DNA from: Alphaproteobacteria bacterium
Lineage (GTDB): Bacteria; Pseudomonadota; Alphaproteobacteria; SP197
Direction: 5' to 3'
Length of the DNA stretch: 64,000 nucleotides
NCBI GenBank assembly: GCA_965228895.1
Contig: OZ245842.1
Coordinates: 2,839,964 to 2,903,963, forward strand
Shown here: positions 3,060 through 55,403 of the stretch, piece after piece
How the letters are laid out: each line of letters opens with the position of its first letter
How positions within the stretch are numbered: the stretch's first letter is position 1
The notes under the pieces: model-generated
Seen by the model: only the letters and a program-made list of their open reading frames with translations
Databases searched by the model: none
Told to the model about the DNA's origin: nothing
Translations under genes and position numbers: made by a program

Positions 3060-5707
<2,648 letters not shown>

Positions 5708-7808: not shown

Positions 7809-8694
7809 CGGCGGCCTCGTCGAGATGGCCGCGGCTGGTCAACCACTCGGTGGCGCAGGCGCGGCTCAGCGCCCGCACCCGGCCGATATAGGCAGCGCGC
7901 TCGGTGACCGAGATGACGCCGCGCGCATCCAACAGATTGAAGGTGTGGCTGGCCTTGATGCACTGGTCATAAGCAGGCAGCGGCAGATGCGCTTCGACCA
8001 GCGCGTGACACGCCTTTTCCGCGTCCTCGAAATGGCGCGTCAGCGTCTCGGTATCCGCGTATTCAAAGTTGAAGGCGGAGTATTCCTTTTCAGCCTGCAG
8101 GTAGACGTCGCCATAGCTGACGCCGGCGCCGTTCCAGTCGAGATCGTAGACGTTGTCGACGCCCTGCAGATACATGGCGAGCCGCTCGAGGCCATAGGTC
8201 GCTTCACCCGGCACCGGTCGGCAGTCATAGCCGCCGACCTGCTGGAAATAGGTGAACTGGGTGACCTCCATGCCGTCGCACCAGACTTCCCAGCCGAGCC
8301 CCCACGCGCCCAGCGTCGGACTTTCCCAGTCGTCCTCGACAAAGCGGATATCGTGCGCCAGGGGATCGATGCCGATGGCCTTCAGGCTCTCCAGGTAGAT
8401 GTCCTGGAAGTTGTCGGGCGACGGCTTCATCAGCACCTGGAACTGGTAATAGTGCTGGAGGCGGTTGGGGTTCTCGCCATAGCGACCGTCGGTCGGCCGT
8501 CTGGACGGCTGGACATAGGCGACGTTCCAGGGCTCCGGCCCCAGGCTGCGCAAGGTCGTCGCCCAGTGGAAGGTGCCGGCGCCAACCTCCATGTCATAGG
8601 GCTGCAGGATGACGCAGCCCTGCCCGGCCCAGAACTCCTGAAGCCTTAGAATGAGCTGTTGAAACGGGAGGGCGGACCCGTTGGGCGCGGTCAT
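7801..8694 (-). CDS. glyQ: Glycine--tRNA ligase alpha subunit
   Basis: The product is 297 aa and contains [33 protein letters not shown], which is highly characteristic of GlyQ. Confidence 0.95.
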
Positions 8695-31116: not shown

Positions 31117-31193
31117 CGGAGTGTAGCTCAGCCTGGTAGAGCACCGTCTTCGGGAGGCGGGGGCCGGAGGTTCGAATCCTCCCACTCCGACCA
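31117..31193 (+). tRNA. tRNA-Pro (anticodon CGG)
   Basis: I parsed the cloverleaf by hand. The acceptor stem is CGGAGTG/CACTCCG. The D arm is GCTC-AGCCTGGTA-GAGC. The anticodon stem is CCGTC/GGCGG with loop TTCGGGA. The T arm is GGAGG-TTCGAAT-CCTCC. The 3' ACCA is encoded. Confidence 0.9.
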
Positions 31194-44182: not shown

Positions 44183-44800
44183 GTGACAGCGAGATGCGGT
44201 TGGTTTCTGGGGTTCGCGTTGTCATGCCTGGTCATCGCACCGGCCACCGCCGAATCGATCACGGTCAAAGGACTGACCTTCACCGATGAGCTCGGCGGGT
44301 TTCGCCTGTTGGCGGCATGGGGCAGCGGTTCGCTCGAAGACCCGATCACGGTGGTCGAAGAAATCACCAGCACCAGGGGCGCCGTCTTGATGATCCGAGG
44401 CGTTGGCCCGCATACCGGCAACGCCATTCCGACCAACCATCCCGCCGGCTTCGCACTGCGCAAGATCGTCACCAACGCGACCAACCAGACCTGGACGTTC
44501 TTTGATATCGAGTTGCAGAAGTTGCTGGGTACACCAAGCGACATCTACGACGGGCTGTCGTTCGGCCAGGATGCGCAGGCCGGGCGGCCGTTTACCTCCA
44601 ATCGATTCGGCCAAAGCGTGTCGCAGGACGAGCCGCGCGATCACGTCACGTTTTTTGATGGCGTGGTCGAACCGGGCGAAACCGTCAGCATGGACTTCGT
44701 CATCACCGCAACCGGTTACGTCACAGAACTGATGCTGCTGCAAAAACCGAACCGCCCGGTCGCATCGATCGACGGCGGCGCCACGGACCACGGCGGATGA
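44183..44800 (+). CDS. Exported protein of unknown function, translationally coupled to the cyclase
   Basis: It has a GTG start and the signal peptide WFLGFALSCLVIAPATAES. The stop TGA overlaps the ATG of the next gene (ATGA at 44797-44800). Confidence 0.5.
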   Translation: MTARCGWFLGFALSCLVIAPATAESITVKGLTFTDELGGFRLLAAWGSGSLEDPITVVEEITSTRGAVLMIRGVGPHTGNAIPTNHPAGFALRKIVTNATNQTWTFFDIELQKLLGTPSDIYDGLSFGQDAQAGRPFTSNRFGQSVSQDEPRDHVTFFDGVVEPGETVSMDFVITATGYVTELMLLQKPNRPVASIDGGATDHGG

Positions 44801-46464
44801 TCGCGCGCATCAGACTGGGCTCCGGGCTGGTGCTTATGGTCTTTCTTGCCAGCCACCTGATCAACCACGCGCTGGGCATCCATTCTCTGGCCTGGATGGA
44901 GGCTGGCCGGCGTGTCTTCGATGGGGTTTGGCGCAGTACGCCGGGCACGGTCGTGCTGTGCGCGGCACTGGTCCTCCATCTGGGCCTGGTCTTCTGGGCG
45001 CTCTACCGGCGCAACAGCCTGGCCATGCCGCCACGCGAGTGGGCCCAGCTCTTGCTGGGGCTCACCATACCGCTGCTGGTCGCAGAACACGTGGCCGGCA
45101 CAAGGGGCGCCAACGAACTGTTCGGCGTCAACGACACTTATCCCTACGTTATCTATGCGCTATGGGTGGACGCGCCGTGGAAAGGCGTTCTGCAGTCGGT
45201 CCTGATCATCACCGCCTGGCTGCACGGCTGCTTGGGGATACACTTCTGGCTGCGCCTGAAACCCTGGTATCGGCGCTGGCAATGGTGCGCCTTCAGCTTG
45301 GCAATCCTGGTCCCCATCCTTGCCCTTGGCGGTTTTGTCGGCGCCGGCATTGACGTCGCGCGCTTGGCCAGTGACCCCGACTGGCTGCCCGAGTTTCTCG
45401 CCTCGACCGGCGTCGGGCGCGTCTTCGAACAGCTCTCAGCCTTCATGGCCCAAGCGCAACTCTGGACGATCGCCGTGGTCGTGGCCTTGGTCGCCACCGT
45501 TCTGCTTCTCAGATGGCTTCGCATGGCATTTGCCGCCCGGCGAAAAGCCCCTCGCCTGACCTACCCCAACGGTCAGGTGGTCGAGATCGCGCCGGGCTCG
45601 ACCGTGCTGGAGACCAGCCGCGCCGCCGACATTCCCCACGCCTCGGTTTGCGGCGGGCGCGGCCGTTGCTCGACCTGCCGCGTCCGGCTGGGCCACGGTC
45701 GAGATGATCTGGAACCGCCCGACGCCGATGAGCGCAAGGTCTTGGAGCGCATCGGCGATCCACCCCATGTCCGCTTGGCGTGTCAGCTTCGCCCGACCGC
45801 GGACCTTGCAGTCACCCCCTTGCTGCCCGCGCACGCCGGCCCCGCCGACGCGGTCATGCGCCAACGACCCGCCGGCGCCGGACGGGAACAGGAGATCGCC
45901 GTATTGTTTGCCGACCTCCGGGGCTTCACCACGCTGTCGGAAGCCAACCTTCCCTATGACACCGTCTTTGTCCTGAACCGCTATTTCGAAGCCATGGGCC
46001 ATGCCATCGAGGGCGCCGGCGGGCAGATCGACAAGTTTATCGGTGACGGCGTCATGGCGCTGTTTGGCGTCGACGGCACGATCGATAATGGATGCCGCCA
46101 GGCACTCGACGCGACGGAGGCCATGAGCCACGCGCTTGCCGCGCTCAACCGTTCGCTCGCCAAGGAGATTGAACAGCCGCTTCGACTCGGCATCGGCCTG
46201 CATGTCGGGCCGGCGGTGATCGGCGAAATGGGGTACGGCGAAACCATGCACATGACGGCAATCGGCGACGTCGTGAACACGGCGAGCCGGCTGGAGGGTG
46301 CGACGAAAGATCTGCGCTGCGATCTCGTTGTCTCAGAGCGTGTCGTGGAGCTGGCCGGCGTGCCCGAGATGCCCGGGTTGCCTCACGATCTGACGGTTCG
46401 CGGCAAGCGGGAAACCCTTCGGGTACGCGCCATCAGCAACCTCGCCGGCACACCAAAGTTATAA
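44797..46464 (+). CDS. Membrane [2Fe-2S]-ferredoxin-domain adenylate/guanylate cyclase
   Basis: About 240 aa of TM helices with conserved histidines (SHLINHALGIH, AEHVAG, WLHGCLGIHFW) come first. A plant-type ferredoxin domain follows (CGGRGRCSTCRV...LACQ). The protein ends in a class III cyclase core (IAVLFADLRGFT, KFIGDGVMALFG). Confidence 0.8.
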   Translation: MIARIRLGSGLVLMVFLASHLINHALGIHSLAWMEAGRRVFDGVWRSTPGTVVLCAALVLHLGLVFWALYRRNSLAMPPREWAQLLLGLTIPLLVAEHVAGTRGANELFGVNDTYPYVIYALWVDAPWKGVLQSVLIITAWLHGCLGIHFWLRLKPWYRRWQWCAFSLAILVPILALGGFVGAGIDVARLASDPDWLPEFLASTGVGRVFEQLSAFMAQAQLWTIAVVVALVATVLLLRWLRMAFAARRKAPRLTYPNGQVVEIAPGSTVLETSRAADIPHASVCGGRGRCSTCRVRLGHGRDDLEPPDADERKVLERIGDPPHVRLACQLRPTADLAVTPLLPAHAGPADAVMRQRPAGAGREQEIAVLFADLRGFTTLSEANLPYDTVFVLNRYFEAMGHAIEGAGGQIDKFIGDGVMALFGVDGTIDNGCRQALDATEAMSHALAALNRSLAKEIEQPLRLGIGLHVGPAVIGEMGYGETMHMTAIGDVVNTASRLEGATKDLRCDLVVSERVVELAGVPEMPGLPHDLTVRGKRETLRVRAISNLAGTPKL

Positions 46465-47736: not shown

Positions 47737-48129
47737 CTACTGAGCGTCCGGGCTGTTGGCTTTCAGATAGGCAATGACGTTGGCGATGTCGTCCTCCTTG
47801 GTCAGGCGGAACGTCATTTTGACGCCAGAGATGTATTTGGTCGGCCCGGCCAACCATTCGGTCAGTGTTGCTTCGTCCCAAACGATGCCGGATTCGGGCA
47901 GCTTGCCGGAATCGAGCGATCCCGCTTCGTTTGAACCCGCCGCGCTGCCGTAGACCCCAAACAAATTTGGACCTTGCTTCGGTGCGCCGCCTTGTTCGAT
48001 CGTGTGGCAGACCTTGCAGCGGTTGAACACCTTCTCACCTTGGGCAACATCGCCTTCGGCCCAAGCCGATTGCGCGGTGAGCCCAAGAGCGAGCGTGAGC
48101 AAAGATCCGAAAGCGGCAACACGTTTCAT
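47737..48129 (-). CDS. Periplasmic class I cytochrome c (c2-like)
   Basis: There is a signal peptide. CKVCHTIE is the haem-binding motif. The distal methionine lies in GVKMTFRLTKEDDIANVIAYL. Confidence 0.85.
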   Translation of the reverse strand: MKRVAAFGSLLTLALGLTAQSAWAEGDVAQGEKVFNRCKVCHTIEQGGAPKQGPNLFGVYGSAAGSNEAGSLDSGKLPESGIVWDEATLTEWLAGPTKYISGVKMTFRLTKEDDIANVIAYLKANSPDAQ

Positions 48130-48227: not shown

Positions 48228-48716
48228 TTACGATCCCGTGCACTCACCGCAGTTTTCGACCGGCAGATCCCTGGCCAACCATCCCGGACCGTCGCCGCTG
48301 CCGACCATGCCCTCGCCAATATCGTAGATCTGTTCAAACCCCTCGCCCTCCAGAAGGACATGCGCGATCGCGGAACGAACGCCGGCGGCGCAAATCAACG
48401 CGATCGGGCGTGACCTGTCGCCACCGGCAAGAGCCGTGACCTCTTCGACAAAATCCAGGTTCGGCAGACCATAGGCCAGAAACAGACTTGCCCTGCCAGC
48501 GCCCTCAGGAATACCGGTTTCGCGCCACTCCGATTCCGTCCGGATGTCGACAATCAGAAGCTCGCCCTGGCCAGACTGCTGCCATGCGTCCGGTGCCGAG
48601 AGCAGACCGTCGCCCTCCGCATAAGCCGGCGCAATAACAAAGAACACGAGCGCAAAAGCAAGGGATGGGCCGCGAACGGCCCATCCCCAGATCATCAAGC
48701 AGACGTTGGTTGTCAT
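48228..48716 (-). CDS. Exported single-domain rhodanese (sulfurtransferase)
   Basis: The start is the ATG at 48716. The signal peptide is ...LAFALVFFVIAPAYAEG. The active-site loop is CAAGVRS. LIVDIRTESEW is typical of the rhodanese fold. Confidence 0.75.
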   Translation of the reverse strand: MTTNVCLMIWGWAVRGPSLAFALVFFVIAPAYAEGDGLLSAPDAWQQSGQGELLIVDIRTESEWRETGIPEGAGRASLFLAYGLPNLDFVEEVTALAGGDRSRPIALICAAGVRSAIAHVLLEGEGFEQIYDIGEGMVGSGDGPGWLARDLPVENCGECTGS

Positions 48717-48729
48717 CGGTTGATGATGA

Positions 48730-51282
48730 TCAGTTTCGATACTCCTCGGGGATGAAGAGCAGCGAATCCACCTCGGCGCCAATATGACAGTCGATGCAGA
48801 ACGCCACCTTTTCTGTACCCTCCCCGTTTGTGGTGCCGACAGTCTTGCCGTTGGGCATGATCAGGGTGTAGCGCCAGTCATCGGAGTCGGCGTTAAATCC
48901 CGAAGCCATCTTCTCCATGACAAACAACGGTCCGGGCACCACCGTGCCCTTTGCCGTCACCGCGAAGCTGTCCTTGGCCAGCACGGCACCAGCAGGCATG
49001 GTGCCGCCGTTTTCGTACTCGCCATATGACTGCGCCGCTGCGGCGTCAGCGTAATTGTTCACGAAGCGTCCGCCGTGGGTGTACGACTTGTAGGGCACGG
49101 AGTTGTACTTTTCCCATCCGCTGTAGGCGGACGAGATGTCAAGACCGGTGCTGGACATCAAATTGGCCTTGGCATAGCCGACTTCCATCTGCGCCTTGAT
49201 GCAGTCGTAAGCCGCCACAGCCTCGTCATTGGTCAGTTCGATGTCGACGCCGGCACCGCAGCCGCCGCACGCACCACAGCCGCCACACGCACCGCAACCG
49301 CCGCACGCACCACAGGCTCCACAAGCACCACAAGCACCACAGCCGCCACACGCACCGCAGCCACCGCAAGCGCCACAGGCTCCGCAAGCGCCGCAGGCCG
49401 AGCAGGCATCGCAGGCACTGCAGCCCGCCGCCATGCCGGCCGCAGGAACCGCCTCCGGATTCTCCTGCAAGCTCGCGCCGCAACCGCCGCACGCGCCACA
49501 GGCACCGCACGCGCCGCAGCCGCCACAGGCTCCGCAATCGGCCCAAGCGATGCTCGGCACCACGCAACCGGTGTCGGCTTCTGCCGCACAACCGCCGCAT
49601 GCACCACAACCACCGCACGCGCCACACGCTCCGCAAGCACCACACGCGCCGCAGCCACCACAGGCTCCGCATGCACCGCATGCACCGCATGCACCGCATG
49701 CACCGCATGCGTCACAAGCAGAACATGCGCCGCAAGCAGAACATGCGCCGCAGCCTGCCGCCATGCCGCTTGGCAACGCTTCCGGGTTCTCATGGCTGGC
49801 GCCATCTTCGTCGTCGGACCCGTCGGATTTCTCACCGCGCGGTTCCCACCAGTCCTCGCCGTCGCGTTTGGCACGCACTGCAAACTTCATGGCGCCATTC
49901 GAGTCTTCCAGGCTGGCGCCGCAACATCCACCACACGCACCGCAGGCATCACAGGCCGCGCAACACGCCGAGCACGCATCACACGCGCCGCAAGCCGAGC
50001 ACGCATCGCAGGCACCGCAGCCCGCCGCCATGCCAGTCGGCAGGGCGTCCGGATTGTCGAGGCTGGCGCCGCAGCATCCACCACACGCACCGCAGGCATC
50101 ACAAGCCGCACAACATGCCGAACACGCATCACACGCGCCGCAAGCCGAGCACGCATCGCACGCACCGCAGCCCGCCGCCATGCCGGTCGGCAGGGCGTCC
50201 GGATTGTCGAGGCTGGCGCCGCAGCATCCACCGCACGCACCGCAGGCATCACAGGCCGCACAACATGCCGAACACGCATCGCACGCGCCGCAAGCCGAGC
50301 ACGCATCGCACGCACCGCAGCCCGCCGCCATGCCGGTCGGCAGGGCGTCCGGATTGTCGAGGCTTGCGCCGCAACATCCACCGCACGCTCCGCAGGCATC
50401 ACAAGCCGCGCAACACGCCGAGCACGCATCACACGCGCCGCAAGCCGAGCACGCATCGCAGGCACCGCAGCCCGCCGCCATGCCAGTCGGCAGGGCGTCC
50501 GGATTGTCGAGGCTGGCGCCGCAACATCCACCGCAAGCTCCGCAGGCATCACAGGCCGCGCAACACGCCGAGCACGCATCACACGCGCCGCAAGCCGAGC
50601 ACGCATCGCACGCACCGCAGCCAGCCGCCATGCCGGTCGGCAGGGCGTCCGGATTGTCGAGGCTGGCGCCGCAACATCCACCGCAAGCTCCGCAGGCATC
50701 ACAAGCCGCGCAACATGCCGAACACGCATCACACGCGCCGCAAGCCGAGCACGCATCGCACGCACCGCAGCCCGCCGCCATGCCAGTCGGCAGGGCGTCC
50801 GGATTGTCGAGGCTTGCGCCGCAACATCCACCACACGCACCGCAGGCATCACAAGCCGCGCAACATGCCGAACACGCATCACACGCGCCGCAAGCCGAGC
50901 ACGCATCGCACGCACCGCAGCCCGCCGCCATGCCAGTCGGCAGGGCGTCCGGATTGTCGAGGCTTGCGCCGCAACATCCACCACACGCACCGCAGGCATC
51001 ACAGGCCGCGCAACACGCCGAACACGCATCGCACGCGCCGCAAGCCGAGCACGCATCGCACGCACCGCAGCCCGCCGCCATGCCGGTCAAAGCACGATCG
51101 GCGATGGACAAGGAGGCGGGCATGGGAACGGCGGCCGGATTTTCGACCGCGCGTGGATTGACAAGGCGACAGCTGGCGCGACCACAAGGCGCTGCCGCAA
51201 CGCTGACGGCAAGCGCAACGCCGGCGCCCATAAAGGCCGGCAGCATCGTGCTCGACAGCAGATTACGTTTGAGTTCACTCAT
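48730..51282 (-). CDS. Sec-signal hyper-cysteine (Cys-x-x)n tandem-repeat protein with a C-terminal cytochrome P460-family haem-c domain
   Basis: GGGAGG lies upstream of the ATG at 51282. The N-terminal signal is LPAFMGAGVALAVSVAAA. Eight 50-aa units (MAAGCGACDACSACGACDACSACCAACDACGACGGCCGASLDNPDALPTG) are followed by two degenerate Cys modules. The C-terminal ~190 aa has DDWRYTLI and FCIDCHIGAEVDSLLFIPEEY, resembling P460 (NWAFYIF...CAACHKENAKTDMVFTQFYP, from memory). Confidence 0.75.
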   Translation of the reverse strand: MSELKRNLLSSTMLPAFMGAGVALAVSVAAAPCGRASCRLVNPRAVENPAAVPMPASLSIADRALTGMAAGCGACDACSACGACDACSACCAACDACGACGGCCGASLDNPDALPTGMAAGCGACDACSACGACDACSACCAACDACGACGGCCGASLDNPDALPTGMAAGCGACDACSACGACDACSACCAACDACGACGGCCGASLDNPDALPTGMAAGCGACDACSACGACDACSACCAACDACGACGGCCGASLDNPDALPTGMAAGCGACDACSACGACDACSACCAACDACGACGGCCGASLDNPDALPTGMAAGCGACDACSACGACDACSACCAACDACGACGGCCGASLDNPDALPTGMAAGCGACDACSACGACDACSACCAACDACGACGGCCGASLDNPDALPTGMAAGCGACDACSACGACDACSACCAACDACGACGGCCGASLEDSNGAMKFAVRAKRDGEDWWEPRGEKSDGSDDEDGASHENPEALPSGMAAGCGACSACGACSACDACGACGACGACGACGACGGCGACGACGACGACGGCGACGGCAAEADTGCVVPSIAWADCGACGGCGACGACGACGGCGASLQENPEAVPAAGMAAGCSACDACSACGACGACGACGGCGACGGCGACGACGACGACGGCGACGGCGACGGCGAGVDIELTNDEAVAAYDCIKAQMEVGYAKANLMSSTGLDISSAYSGWEKYNSVPYKSYTHGGRFVNNYADAAAAQSYGEYENGGTMPAGAVLAKDSFAVTAKGTVVPGPLFVMEKMASGFNADSDDWRYTLIMPNGKTVGTTNGEGTEKVAFCIDCHIGAEVDSLLFIPEEYRN
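49911..51081. repeat. Tandem direct repeat, 150-bp unit x ~7.8, inside the Cys-rich gene
   Basis: The anchor gcccgccgccatgcc recurs at about 50020, 50170, 50320, 50470, 50620, 50770, 50920 and 51070. In the one adjacent pair I compared, the units are about 95% identical at the DNA level. Confidence 0.95.
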
Positions 51283-51457
51283 AACCGAAGAAACCTCCCA
51301 AATATCCCAGTTGCCCTGCCCTCACGACAACGTGTCGACCGCTGCCTTTGAAAGTCGGCGAAACTATCGCCCCATAGCTCGAGGGTGCAGGGCGATGATA
51401 TCGACTGACTTCGACATGGAACCAGTGATTTCCCTTTCACGTTAGCGTGAGAATGTA

Positions 51458-52336
51458 GTGGTGAAAAAGCCAGGGCTAGTGCGGCTTTCCGGCCTAACAC
51501 TTGTAATCTTTGCAGGCATAGTGATGACGCCGGCATGGGCCCAGGACCCACCCCTGCCCGGCATGGACGTCATCGAGATTCCGGCCGGATCGTTTCTTGC
51601 CGGATCAACATCGGAAGAACGCGAGCGCGCCTATCAGCTCGACGAAGCTGCTTACGGCCACAGCCGCACCCGCGAACGCGGCTGGTACGAAGACGATGAC
51701 GACCTGCACGAGGTCTATCTCGACACCTATTGGATCACCAAGAATCTGATCACCAACGCCCAGTATCAGGTCTTTGTCGAGGCTACGGGCCATCGAGTCC
51801 CGGACATCGACAAGGAGACCTGGGACGGCTTCGGCCTGATCCACCCTTACGAAAGAACGCGTCAATTCGCCTGGACAGATGGTGTGCCGCCGACCGGCCG
51901 CGAGGATCATCCGGTGGTCATGGTCAACCATGCCGATGCAACAGCGTTCGCCGTATGGCTATCTGAGGAAACCGGTCAGACCTGGCGGTTGCCGAGCGAA
52001 ATGGAGTGGCAAAAGGCGGCGCGCGGCACGGACGGGCGGATGTTCCCGTGGGGCGACGAATGGGATCCCAACCTGGCGAACACGCACGATGCCGGCCCGT
52101 TTCGAACCGTGCCGGTGGGCTCTTTTCCCGAAGCCGCAAGTCCTTATGGCATGTTGGATGCCGCGGGCCAGGTGTTTGAATGGACGACGACCTTGAAACG
52201 CCCCGGCCGTTACTGGGTCAAGGGCGGGTCCTGGGATGACCGCGGGTGCGGCGTGTGCCGGCCAGCCGACCGGCACAGCCGCCCCGAGGACATTCAGCAC
52301 ATACTTGTCGGATTCAGGCTCGTGCTGGAACCCTGA
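51458..52336 (+). CDS. Exported formylglycine-generating-enzyme (FGE/SUMF1) family protein
   Basis: The signal peptide is LTLVIFAGIVMTPAWAQ. The FGE-sulfatase domain pattern is HPVVMVNHADATAFAVWLSE..WRLPSEMEWQKAARG...VKGGSWDD. The start is a GTG. Confidence 0.75.
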   Translation: MVKKPGLVRLSGLTLVIFAGIVMTPAWAQDPPLPGMDVIEIPAGSFLAGSTSEERERAYQLDEAAYGHSRTRERGWYEDDDDLHEVYLDTYWITKNLITNAQYQVFVEATGHRVPDIDKETWDGFGLIHPYERTRQFAWTDGVPPTGREDHPVVMVNHADATAFAVWLSEETGQTWRLPSEMEWQKAARGTDGRMFPWGDEWDPNLANTHDAGPFRTVPVGSFPEAASPYGMLDAAGQVFEWTTTLKRPGRYWVKGGSWDDRGCGVCRPADRHSRPEDIQHILVGFRLVLEP

Positions 52337-52647: not shown

Positions 52648-52836
52648 ACCCTTGATCTCCAATGTAAAAGCGGCCTTACCTGGCCGCGTGGGCCTCACCT
52701 GGCCTCGTGCGTTGCCACCATATGGTCATGAGGAATACGCAAGAAAAGGCACAAACGATCATCGCCCAGTCACATATGCTTCACGTAATCGATCACAATC
52801 TTGAAAGGTGGTGGCGCTGACGCCATCCTCACGCCC

Positions 52837-53592
52837 ATGGCAATGACAGAAACCGCGACACCGGGCCTGGACGTCGATCTACCGCGACGGGTCCAGCTCG
52901 ATGATTTGGACCGCAGCGACCTCGAAGAGATGCTCGAGGCCGGGCGTGATGTGCTCGAATGCTACCGGGTGCTGCGCAAAAACAACGACAACGTGGTCGG
53001 CGAACTGCTGCGCGACGTCGAAACCTTCTACCAGTGGCAGCACTATCCAAAGGGTGACATCTTCGACCGGGAGACCGGCAGCCAGTTCTATTATCACGCC
53101 CACCCTAAGGCCAGCCGGCCGGGTGAGCATGGCCATTTCCACACCTTCATGCGCGCCAAAGGGATGCCCAAGGGCACCGAACCCGTCCCTTACGACGGCG
53201 ACAAGGTGTGGCCCTTGGGTCCCGATGCGCTGAGCCATCTGATCGCGATATCGATGGATCCAAAGGGGTATCCCATCGGCTTGTTCACGGTGAACCGGTG
53301 GGTCACCGGGGACACGTGGTATGCCGCCGAGGATGTGGTGAAGATGGTCGACCTGTTCGACATCGATCACGCCCGCCCCTCCTGGCCGGTCAACCGCTGG
53401 GTCACGGCGATGATGCGCCTGTTCCGTCCGCTGGTGCATGACCTCGTAAGGGAACGCGATCTGGTCATGGCGGCATGGCGCGACAGTCATCCGGGAACCG
53501 ATGTCTATGCCGACCACGGTCTTGAGATCACGTCGGCCAGCACGATTTCCGTCGAGAAGCAGATCACGCGCATCCGCAGTCTTCTCGCCTAG
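52837..53592 (+). CDS. Hypothetical protein with a His-rich HAHP...GEHGHFH motif
   Basis: The coding look is good, with no signal peptide. The motif YYHAHPKASRPGEHGHFHTF suggests a metal site (cupin-like?). I do not recognise the family. The start is the ATG at 52837. Confidence 0.5.
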   Translation: MAMTETATPGLDVDLPRRVQLDDLDRSDLEEMLEAGRDVLECYRVLRKNNDNVVGELLRDVETFYQWQHYPKGDIFDRETGSQFYYHAHPKASRPGEHGHFHTFMRAKGMPKGTEPVPYDGDKVWPLGPDALSHLIAISMDPKGYPIGLFTVNRWVTGDTWYAAEDVVKMVDLFDIDHARPSWPVNRWVTAMMRLFRPLVHDLVRERDLVMAAWRDSHPGTDVYADHGLEITSASTISVEKQITRIRSLLA

Positions 53593-54053: not shown

Positions 54054-54572
54054 TCATTCGGCAAAGCCTATCCATGGCGAATCGGGCTTACGGCTGAATG
54101 CCGCCGAGCCATCCGCGACCTGCGCCTGAACGGTCTTCCAGTTATCGGCGCCGCGCGTGATGCGCGAACGCATGTCGGAGGTCCATTGGCCTTTAACCTG
54201 TTCATCCCAATTCAGATAGAGCTTGTCGTCGACAACGCTCCACGCCGTCGCGGGATCGACTTCGGCGGCATACGCGCCAACCGACAGCGCATAGGCACAC
54301 CAACCGCCGAACTGCGGCGCGTAGGCTTCGGGATCGCCGGCAAAGAGGTCACGGTTTTCGGCGCTGGCGAAATGCCACGTCGCGCCGTTCCAAGCATGGC
54401 TCAGTGTGGGATCGCCTTGCACGGCTTCACCTTGGGTGAAGTAAGCGACCGTGTCATAGCCACCAATCGCGACGCCATCGGGCGTCACATTCACTGAGCT
54501 GTCGGCATGCGCCCAATGGGTGAAGAGCGCCGACGCCAGCATCACACACAGCACGAAAGCGATTCGTCGCAT
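54054..54572 (-). CDS. YHS domain-containing exported protein (Cys form of the YHS (seleno)protein family)
   Basis: From the ATG at 54572 the signal peptide is MRRIAFVLCVMLASALFTHWAHA. GYDTVAYF, WHFASAENRDLF and FGGWCAYAL follow. Confidence 0.6.
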   Translation of the reverse strand: MRRIAFVLCVMLASALFTHWAHADSSVNVTPDGVAIGGYDTVAYFTQGEAVQGDPTLSHAWNGATWHFASAENRDLFAGDPEAYAPQFGGWCAYALSVGAYAAEVDPATAWSVVDDKLYLNWDEQVKGQWTSDMRSRITRGADNWKTVQAQVADGSAAFSRKPDSPWIGFAE

Positions 54573-54719
54573 AGCCCGATCCTCTCCGGTCGTTTCGCGC
54601 AACATCATCGGCCAAAGTGACCTCGACGCGCCAATCGCCGTTGGCCACCATGTCGATAGCCTGGTGCTATGGTCCGACCATCGCATCACCGGCGCCAACC
54701 CGCTGCAGGAATCCTGCCG

Positions 54720-55403
54720 ATGACGAATACTCTCTTAGGGGTTCTCGCCTTCACGCTGATCCCCTGTATCGGCATTCTTGCCGGCAGCGCAGCCGCCCTG
54801 GCACGTGCGCCAGGGCCGAGACTGATCAGCGCGTTTCAGCACTTTGCCGCCGGTGTGGTGTTTGCCGCGGTGGCGGTGGAACTACTGCCGCAACTCCACA
54901 CTCTGGATTCACCAGTCGCCATGATCGTCGGCTTTGTGCTGGGGATCGGGGCGATGCTGATGTTCAAGGCCCTGTTCGAAGATGCCGGTATCGTTGTTCC
55001 CATGACCGTGGACCTTTTCGTCGACGGCTTACTGATCGCCGTCGGTTTTGCTGCCGGCGTGATGGGCGGGACGGTTCTGTTGATTGGCCTGACGCTGGAA
55101 ACGCTGTCGCTGGGACTGTCGACGGCCCCCGCGCTGGTAAAGCGCGGCATGACACGGTCGCGGGCTGTTGTGATGTTGGTCGCGATCAGCCTGGCCATCC
55201 TTGTCGGCGCGGCGGCCGGTCATCTCATTGCCGGCATGTCGGGCGCCTTTCTGGCCGGTATTCTTGGTTTCGGTGTCGCGGCGCTGCTCTATCTGGTGAC
55301 CGAAGAATTGTTGAGCGAAGCGCACGAGGTGCCGGATACGCCGATCGTCACCGCGACCTTCTTCGCCGGTTTCCTGGTGCCTATCGTGATAGCGGCCGCC
55401 TGA
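54720..55403 (+). CDS. ZIP-family-like divalent metal transporter
   Basis: The product is 227 aa with about 8 TM helices. Conserved acidic and histidine positions lie in the helices (FQHFAAGVVF, DLFVDGLLIAVGF, LVTEELLSEAHE). The family assignment is from memory only. Confidence 0.45.
   Translation: MTNTLLGVLAFTLIPCIGILAGSAAALARAPGPRLISAFQHFAAGVVFAAVAVELLPQLHTLDSPVAMIVGFVLGIGAMLMFKALFEDAGIVVPMTVDLFVDGLLIAVGFAAGVMGGTVLLIGLTLETLSLGLSTAPALVKRGMTRSRAVVMLVAISLAILVGAAAGHLIAGMSGAFLAGILGFGVAALLYLVTEELLSEAHEVPDTPIVTATFFAGFLVPIVIAAA

Follow-up and report, generated by a model that had tools for sequence, protein, structure and literature searches.

The gene and its product

The 64,000-nt stretch of DNA analysed here (the window) is part of contig OZ245842.1 of an alphaproteobacterial assembly (GCA_965228895.1). 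It contains an uninterrupted minus-strand open reading frame (ORF) of 850 codons (48730..51282) in which a tandem array of 150-bp units is embedded. The product comprises, from the N-terminus, a signal peptide, eight cysteine modules, a spacer, three degenerate cysteine blocks and a P460-type domain. The 150-bp units are in-frame coding modules of this single gene, and the exclusively silent character of their variation is almost certainly the outcome of selection.

Tandem Repeats Finder returned a single array (49910-51088) with a period of 150, 7.9 copies, 96% matches and no indels; as a feature of the minus strand it is delimited at 49909..51087. The unit length is a multiple of three and the units run head-to-tail, without indels, within one ORF, as in a coding tandem repeat. 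Each unit is formed by a linker of 17 residues (GASLDNPDALPTGMAAG) and a core of 33, the latter being two copies of CGACDACSA followed by CCAACDACGACGGCC. Every module opens with this conserved linker (...ALPTGMAAGC), and the linker peptide SLDNPDALPTGMAAGC is diagnostic for the product of the sense frame. A unit contains 13 Cys (26% of its residues), no His and no aromatic residue, and the eight-unit region (401 residues) contains 104 Cys and not one Phe, Trp, Tyr or His. In the first-pass annotation every full unit, and all eight encoded peptides, were described as identical. This holds for the seven full units (49921-50970), which share the complete 50-residue peptide, and fails for the eighth (50971-51120), the one closest to the N-terminus, where 38 of the 50 residues, the last 38, are common in the phase used there. 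In another phase the array presents eight identical copies of a 43-residue segment, TGMAAGC...GGCCGASL (TGMAAGCGACDACSACGACDACSACCAACDACGACGGCCGASL).

The complete protein has 155 Cys arranged in 123 CxxC and 16 CC motifs, with no CxC. Its N-terminal two thirds are Cys-dense and of low complexity, with about 650 residues of such repeats ahead of the heme domain. The start codon at 51282 is preceded, 11 nt upstream, by a Shine-Dalgarno-like GGGAGG (51294..51299, minus strand) recognised by inspection, and a promoter scan found no sigma-70-like site upstream of the gene. Residues 1-31 (MSELKRNLLSSTMLPAFMGAGVALAVSVAAA; 51190..51282) were judged by inspection to be a Sec-type signal peptide, the N-termini of the relatives share the pattern LLS(S/T)T..P, and the protein is predicted to be Sec-exported and either periplasmic or secreted. 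Two other export signals were considered and rejected: a lipobox reading of MAAGC or LAAGC has the wrong residue at -3 and lies internally, and the twin arginine of Tat export is absent. An acidic non-repeat spacer of 48 residues (EDSNGAMKFAVRAKRDGEDWWEPRGEKSDGSDDEDGASHENPEALPSG; 49765..49908), partly kept in a sister species (L043), separates the array from the three degenerate Cys/Gly/Ala blocks (49249..49764). The blocks are of the (GAC/GGC)n type with sub-repeats of 9, 18 and 27 bp, and one of them carries an in-frame indel of 27 bp (49667..49693; nine codons of the GAC/GGC tract) that is present in the window and missing from a second strain of the same species (L001). The central motif GCVVPSIAWADC (49534..49569), equivalent to C[AV][VI]P[RS][IL] of the homologs, occupies the middle of the Cys tract in almost all members of the family, regardless of the type of repeat. 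The ORF is likewise uninterrupted in L001, L043 and two further relatives (L038 and L039). An Rfam scan of the window identified a tRNA (31117-31190) only, and nothing in the array.

The C-terminal domain (48733..49248, minus strand) has the cytochrome P460 / c'-beta fold according to Pfam, AlphaFold2 and Foldseek. Its 172 residues match PF16694 (Cytochrome_P460) above the curated threshold (29.3 bits, cutoff 27; E 1.3e-6, residues 735-839), and the AlphaFold2 model has a predicted local distance difference test score (pLDDT) of 92.8 and a predicted template modelling score of 0.88. Foldseek gave a probability of 1.0 for 9hqt, 6hih, 7s5o, 2je2 and 8gar; the nine PDB matches with E <= 0.001 are all c'-beta or P460 proteins, with target-normalised template modelling scores of 0.44-0.64. 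A sequence search of the PDB with the single C-terminal domain as query gave no true match and a profile was required, a 38-sequence profile of the domain matching 7s5o at E 0.0015. The heme c attachment motif is CIDCH (residues 829-833; 48784..48798), of which C152, C155 and H156 in the numbering of the domain are invariant in the 38 homologs. A second invariant residue is the Lys of LAKDSF (K770 in the protein, K93 in the domain; 48973..48975), aligned with the Met of IVIMEIY in N. europaea cytochrome c'-beta, in a column that we take to be the position of the heme-Lys cross-link of true P460s. The domain is on this basis a candidate member of the true P460 sub-type, as distinct from c'-beta. 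The domain shares with the solved members of PF16694 (N. europaea CytL, 2je2; M. capsulatus c'-beta, 6hih; N. europaea c'-beta, 7s5o) the fold, a C-terminal CxxCH and the predicted export, and a cytochrome c gene adjoins its gene. It differs from them in sequence, with only 15-24% identity, and in the Cys-dense part of about 650 residues ahead of it, which is found in the window protein and in no characterised P460 member.

Variation among the units

The adjacent units at 49921-50070 and 50071-50220 differ at 49924, 49954, 49960, 49966, 49972, 50011 and 50035 and nowhere else, exactly as first noted, and all seven coordinates are congruent with 48730 modulo 3, which places them at the wobble position of codons in the minus-strand ORF. 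The seven full units have 13 variable columns, all of them at position 3 and all synonymous, and the pairwise distances are 3-10 nt (93-98% identity). The second strain, L001, is 99.3% identical to the window over 20.5 kb. When its units are added, the independent variable columns become 15, again all wobble and all synonymous (P ~5e-10 under uniform neutral mutation). Each unit has 36 synonymous and 114 non-synonymous sites. The proportion of differing non-synonymous sites (pN) among the units of the two strains is 0 and that of differing synonymous sites (pS) is 0.18, with a 95% upper bound of about 0.06 for their ratio (omega). Along the whole gene, 54 substitutions separate the window from L001; all are at position 3 and none of the 54 alters an amino acid.

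An independent array was identified in L043, a different species whose flanking DNA is about 82% identical to the window and whose C-terminal domain is about 96% identical by our own count of differences. Its uninterrupted ORF encodes 1220 residues with 18-19 modules of 39-43 residues. Nearly every wobble position of these units is polymorphic, the mean nucleotide difference is 15.7%, and the values of pS and pN are 0.58 and 0.027 (ratio 0.046). The linker tolerates replacements (omega 0.125), the Cys core has an omega of 0.011, and no Cys column is replaced.

Purifying selection on the peptide, proposed in the first-pass annotation, is borne out by the arrays of the two strains, where at least 15 silent changes are accompanied by no replacement, and by the recurrence of the pattern in the sister species. 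The stricter proposal that the exact peptide is selected stands for the Cys core, where no Cys column of L043 is replaced, and is not demonstrated for the linker. At the omega of L043 about two replacements would be expected in the younger array of the window and none was seen (P ~0.1), so that the identity of the window peptides is compatible with strong, not absolute, constraint. Low-complexity regions are commonly taken as weakly constrained and this array is a clean natural counterexample, in which many tandem copies of a low-complexity peptide are held identical while their DNA drifts toward silent-site saturation and recombines. A known case of a repeated peptide kept identical despite silent divergence is the circumsporozoite protein of Plasmodium falciparum. 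Its NANP repeats also encode the same peptide with different synonymous codons, in a mosaic of silent variants and with a copy number that varies among lineages. The NANP repeat unit is 12 bp long, whereas the units described here have 150 bp and belong to a marine alphaproteobacterium (free-living or symbiotic), and selection would here presumably act on Cys chemistry and not on an immune-exposed epitope.

The minus-strand Cys frame, designated as the coding frame in the first-pass annotation on the basis of codon phase, is the sole frame without amino-acid variation among units and between strains, and no other frame is better conserved. In the units of the window and L001 the sense frame has no variable amino-acid column, the antisense frame with the same wobble positions has 2 and the other four have 11-13; in L043 the corresponding figures, out of 42 columns, are 9, 17 and 36-39. 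Over the first 1588 nt, 49 substitutions separate the strains, and read in the sense frame they change no amino acid, against 8 changes in the antisense frame of shared wobble positions and 41-49 in the remaining frames. The designation of the frame was therefore right, while codon phase alone is weaker evidence than it had been taken to be, because the antisense frame sharing the wobble positions is nearly as conserved. The type of substitution separates the two frames. Two-fold codons (Cys, Asp, Asn) show transitions only and four-fold codons mostly transversions: in the window and L001, transversions occur at 0 of 5 variable two-fold (Cys) wobble sites and at 7 of 10 four-fold sites (Fisher P 0.019), and in L043 in 0 of 15 and 16 of 22 polymorphic columns, respectively (Fisher P 5.8e-6). 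This is predicted by the sense code only. The antisense frame in question corresponds to a plus-strand ORF of 738 residues (49229..51445; QHPPHAPQ..., rich in His, Pro, Ala and Gln). Were this ORF the real gene, the P460 gene would be only about 152 residues long. The ORF is open across all its 738 codons, it has just the two variable columns among the units, and an antisense ORF is called over the Cys-rich region in L001, L038, L039, L040 and L043. Even so, that it is the gene is extremely improbable, given the changes that it suffers between strains and in L043 and the transversion-free Cys, Asp and Asn sites, which it leaves unexplained. It has no significant Pfam family (the sole listed match is PF15180, E 0.59), and it traverses the start codon, the ribosome-binding site and the upstream region of the sense gene. 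Open antisense frames are, moreover, expected from a composition of TGY, GCN, GGN and GAY codons, whereas the sense ORF unites a homologous signal peptide and a homologous P460 domain in every relative; the plus-strand ORF is regarded as spurious. A recent expansion drifting neutrally, or a non-coding satellite whose silent-only variation arose by chance or mutational bias, would agree with units that are 93-98% identical and free of indels. The chance that this is the explanation is practically nil, as the codon-phase and transition/transversion tests already refute it: all 15 columns are synonymous, the pattern recurs in the second strain and in the independent array of L043, and a pS of 0.18 between units is far above the 0.35% divergence of the flanks of the two strains.

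The first-pass annotation had set slippage or gene conversion against purifying selection as alternatives. Selection is confirmed and the dichotomy is too simple, since recombination among units is ongoing alongside it. Silent variants occur in mosaic combinations, with the four-gamete test failed by 22 of 55 column pairs, and exact runs of identity between units extend for 51-164 bp, an ample substrate for exchange. Units are homogeneous within a genome, whereas copy number and unit length differ between species. Between the window and L001, both with eight copies, the flanks differ by about 0.35% and the array by 48 substitutions in 1.18 kb (about 4%), all of them silent. Positional orthologs of the two strains are not nearest neighbours: window unit 4 equals L001 unit 3, the nearest L001 units to window units 5, 3 and 2 are, respectively, 4, 7, and 6 or 8, and L001 units 6 and 8 are identical across the compared stretch (unit positions 46-150). 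The scrambled order and the contrast between array and flanks imply that recombination among units continues. Duplication or conversion, silent mutation and purifying selection thus hold the array in a dynamic equilibrium, and it does not consist of old copies drifting independently; as judged from these sequences, it is a case of concerted evolution at the peptide level. The modules arose by tandem duplication and continue to be rearranged by unequal recombination or gene conversion, with point mutations building up between these events. Practically all replacements are removed by selection, which is strictest in the Cys core, and what survives is the wobble changes permitted by Cys, Ala, Gly and Asp codons.

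Part of this picture might be produced by the assemblies, if mis-polishing or collapse of the repeat had generated the unit scrambling and some of the silent variants. The source of the window, L001 and L043 all appear to be metagenome-derived, which weighs against the extent of scrambling described above, as mis-polishing within the repeat could exaggerate it, and short-read contigs break in the region (L005 and L041 start within it). Sequencing and polishing errors, however, ignore codon phase and the rule of transitions at two-fold and transversions at four-fold sites; both assemblies of the species have the same copy number and an intact ORF, and L001 carries private alleles at unit positions 12 and 45, in columns that are invariant in the window. 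An artefact of this kind is decidedly unlikely, and the codon-phase pattern cannot be one. Mis-polishing could shift real variants between units, so that the variants themselves are better established than the order of the units. Another explanation is that the silent diversity is itself selected, recoding having lowered the identity of the units and stabilised the array against RecA-mediated deletion and slippage. It would account for the wobble composition of the array relative to neighbouring genes (TGT 38% vs 25%, GAT 63% vs 39%, GCG 57% vs 31%), for the eight copies kept in both strains despite reshuffling, and for the L043 units, 16% diverged in DNA with a nearly identical peptide. Homologous recombination needs roughly 25-30 bp of identity. 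The exact runs that remain between units are well above this need, the array has in fact been rearranged between strains, and drift with purifying selection suffices without an extra assumption; selection for silent diversity is accordingly regarded as improbable.

Relatives and their annotation

With the C-terminal 173 residues as query, 316 proteins were found in an index of 5.8 billion proteins. Many of them are homologs of 240-300 residues formed by a signal peptide, a CNPC or CNPCAA tract with a central C[AV][VI]PR[LI], and the P460 domain. A genome scan identified this Cys-tract P460 sub-family in Kiloniellales, Pelagibius and related marine alphaproteobacteria, including the cultured Pelagibius litoralis DSM 21314. 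Distant homologs (<=52% identity) are devoid of the Cys tract, and one protein (P0132) is a Lys-rich CGAC variant. The residues between the Cys vary by lineage, being Asp/Ser here, Asn-Pro in Pelagibius and Lys in P0132. What is conserved across lineages is the density of Cys and the small size of the intervening residues, not the charge or the exact spacing.

The clade with expanded arrays comprises the window, L001, L002, L038, L039, L040, L043 and L044. The modules are 8 of 50 residues in the window and L001, 18-19 of 39-43 residues in L043, at least 12 of about 46 residues in L040, units of 87 residues in L002, and 3-4 in L038. L038 and L039 are two samples of one other relative, and their only difference within the gene is a 9-bp in-frame indel in the tract. 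L002 and L040 present frameshifts in the array (coverage of L040 is 2.3x); they were used for architecture and left out of the rates, and a count of silent variation in L002 sub-units picked for their identical peptide was discarded as circular. The L002 ortholog, of about 985 residues, is split near 8212 by a frameshift inside a module, with about 5 nt missing relative to the sister units; the gene may be a genuine pseudogene, or the repeat may have been misassembled. Among the Pelagibius orthologs (L009, L011, L012, L015, L016 and L017), pS is higher in the tract than in the P460 domain in every pair (e.g. 0.31 vs 0.11), which suggests that the repeats are reshuffled across the whole family; pN in the tract is very low, in an alignment that was protein-guided and therefore biases pN downwards.

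In every public assembly of the clade examined (ENA), the P460 gene is cut to 130-162 residues by gene callers. In five of six assemblies an antisense ORF is called over the intact Cys-rich region: L001 (7771-9948), L038 (4887-5882), L039 (1597-2583), L040 (3057-5078, as two adjacent calls) and L043 (1876-4803), with products of 291-975 residues, the exception being L002. In L001, for example, the antisense frame is annotated as a 725-residue 'protein' and the true gene as one of 152 residues. An exact look-up of the 850-residue product returned no record because the gene is mis-called. Protein databases therefore largely lack full-length Cys-rich P460 proteins, which are hidden by a systematic failure of annotation. 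The full-length query against the 5.8-billion-protein index gave nothing significant among 8000 low-complexity candidates. When the Cys region was run with HMMER against 1.84 billion representatives, the best score was 83 bits and the only true relatives were P0132 and P0182, the other matches inspected being unrelated Cys/Gly/Ala low-complexity proteins. Scans of metagenome DNA with the invariant linker DNA and with a degenerate back-translation of MAAGCGACDACSACG gave 0 matches each.

Literature searches returned nothing on cytochrome P460 with Cys-rich repeats, CNP tracts or metallothionein, and nothing relevant on bacterial or periplasmic tandem-repeat metallothioneins. The signature of silent divergence among repeats and the P460 fold are already known; what is new is the combination of a P460-type heme domain with a selected, tandemly amplified array of 150-290 Cys, which is undescribed in the searchable literature and in curated families. 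This architecture is present in a clade of marine alphaproteobacteria, and its shorter (CNP)n form in the cultured Pelagibius litoralis.

Gene neighbourhood and possible function

The block found in the clade is formed by DUF6969 and FGE-like genes followed, in the divergent orientation, by the Cys-rich P460 gene, a rhodanese and a cytochrome c. The rhodanese-domain gene (48228..48716, minus strand) lies downstream of the P460 gene and is co-oriented with it; its product has an N-terminal hydrophobic, signal-like stretch and a C-terminal CGEC, and it is syntenic in all genomes of the expanded clade. The class I cytochrome c (47737..48129, minus strand) is also co-oriented, and a cytochrome c adjoining a P460-like gene is kept across the wider family. 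On the divergent side are a protein of the FGE-sulfatase family (51458..52336, plus strand), with a signal peptide and a C-terminal GGSW..CGVC, whose adjacency is kept in the expanded-array clade only, and a DUF6969 protein (52801..53592, plus strand). The closest solved relatives of the FGE-like protein are ToxD and CalU17, and it has a CGVC pair instead of the spacing of canonical FGE. Both genes adjoin in the window and in all five clade loci long enough to include them (L001, L002, L038, L040 and L043), L039 showing the FGE-like gene only, and the pair is absent at Pelagibius-type loci. At the latter, the (CNP)n-P460 gene is accompanied by a Cys-less P460 paralog, two cytochrome c genes and a Sel1 protein. 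In the Pelagibius litoralis locus L016 the paralog, of an 'RHF' type (4367-5146), is directly upstream of the (CNP)n-P460 gene (5359-6510); the two cytochrome c genes precede this pair, and an Rrf2-family regulator and SufB are divergent further upstream.

The account as a whole, in which coding modules are maintained by selection, shuffled by recombination and put to a thiolate-type use, is judged probable. Its functional part is more tentative: the modules may form a metallothionein-like thiolate array binding soft metal ions, a reading that is favoured over the others here though short of being probable. Each module, its 13 Cys separated by small or acidic residues only, would be an autonomous thiolate cluster for such ions. 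Capacity would then depend on the number of modules, and this would account for the preservation of every single copy. Coupling to redox chemistry or sulfur transfer would come from the tethered P460 heme, from the periplasmic rhodanese co-transcribed with its gene and from the cytochrome c. If the idea is true, it bears on the handling of metals, sulfur or nitric oxide in the periplasm. Tandem-repeat multi-domain metallothioneins occur in molluscs and ciliates, and bacterial metallothioneins include SmtA/BmtA and MymT. The window modules have in common with metallothioneins a high Cys content (about 26%) in CxxC and CC spacing, small intervening residues, the lack of aromatic residues and His, a modular tandem amplification that scales capacity and, here, no confident predicted fold without ligand. 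They differ in that the array has no homology to curated families, and in that the window protein is periplasmic by prediction, fused to a heme domain, 850-1220 residues long across species and devoid of C-x-C, whereas metallothioneins are cytosolic and smaller than 10 kDa. Weak support for metal binding comes from metal-related genes near the window locus (YHS-family and ZIP) and in L038 (NicO-like). At 54054-54698 (minus strand) and 54669-55403 (plus strand), a member of the YHS-domain '(seleno)protein' family (NCBIfam NF041384, E 1.9e-42) adjoins a weak ZIP-transporter match.

Several points weigh against a metal-binding thiolate array. The metal-related neighbours are weak Pfam matches and are not conserved across the family; the periplasmic location favours disulfides over free thiolates; the Cys region has no Pfam or NCBIfam match even at E <= 1, metallothionein families included; and AlphaFold2 on three modules was uninformative (pLDDT 45, no confident fold). 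The adjacency of rhodanese, FGE-like and DUF6969 genes is confined to one clade, and of the proposed partners the Pelagibius loci have only the cytochrome c, next to the Cys-less P460 paralog and the Sel1 protein.

The same modules could instead carry sulfane sulfur or buffer redox, as iterated Cys arms of the kind found in the sulfur carrier SoxY, where a C-terminal GGCGG acts as a swinging arm. The rhodanese would load and unload the arms and electrons would pass through the P460 heme to the adjoining cytochrome c, an arrangement of heme, carrier Cys and cytochrome c that resembles the logic of SoxAX/SoxY. This would suit the many CGGC and GGCGA motifs of the tracts and the gene order, since rhodanese and cytochrome c follow, co-oriented, in all eight loci that reach them (the window, L001, L002, L005, L038, L040, L041 and L043), and the rhodanese follows also in L039, L003 and L044, where the cytochrome c is beyond the contig end (L039 and L003) or outside the comparison (L044). 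SoxY likewise has Gly-flanked Cys in a flexible segment, is periplasmic and is partnered by a heme protein and a cytochrome c, and here a sulfurtransferase gene adjoins. The carrier function is nevertheless rather unlikely: SoxY has one C-terminal Cys, whereas the window protein has many internal ones; Pfam detects no SoxY-fold domain in it; no sox genes are nearby and the conserved block revealed none of the Sox, Dsr or SQR genes; and Pelagibius-type loci have Cys tracts without a rhodanese. The array could also be a multi-core precursor whose Cys are modified by the divergent periplasmic FGE-like enzyme, perhaps with DUF6969, and which is possibly cleaved at the linkers. FGE-family enzymes act on Cys (FGE, EgtB, OvoA, OvsA), both genes adjoin the array in the window and in the five clade loci named above, and the ALPTGMAAGC of the linker recurs at the start of every module. 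That the array is such a precursor is quite improbable. The 850-residue protein has no CxPxR recognition motif, and as a substrate of FGE itself it was rejected on this ground; the enzyme is closest to ToxD and CalU17 and not to FGE proper; the block, with its FGE-like, DUF6969, rhodanese, cytochrome c and Sel1/SPOR neighbours, contains no maturase of the radical-SAM, YcaO, MNIO or LanM type, no protease and no exporter; a fused, folded heme domain is atypical for the precursor of a ribosomally synthesised and post-translationally modified peptide; and Pelagibius members of the family have no FGE-like neighbour.

A broader and unlikely proposal combines elements of the thiolate array with those of the other two. 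The protein would be a periplasmic polymer of Cys in which each chain connects 150 to about 290 thiols with a P460 heme. It would be loaded or modified by the FGE-like/DUF6969 proteins and the rhodanese, and would store sulfur, metal or electrons at high capacity. The modification might be persulfidation, polysulfide bridges or another, and discharge would take place through the heme to the cytochrome c. If true, this would be a new functional class, beyond a metallothionein look-alike, that has gone unseen because the wrong strand was annotated.

Two further elements of the locus were recorded. A strong terminator-like hairpin (48661-48688, minus strand; 12-bp stem with 9 G-C pairs and a T-rich tail) is located about 40 nt past the stop codon at 48730, within the part of the rhodanese gene that encodes its predicted signal peptide, and it may be an attenuator or a partial terminator between the P460 and rhodanese genes. 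At 44797-46464 (plus strand) there is an unusual fusion gene, whose product has a membrane N-terminus and combines a 2Fe-2S ferredoxin domain with an adenylate/guanylate cyclase domain. This gene is kept beside the cluster in L001, L005 and L038; the same two domains are found in L044, and in L043 the place is occupied by a cyclase-domain gene of 298 residues.

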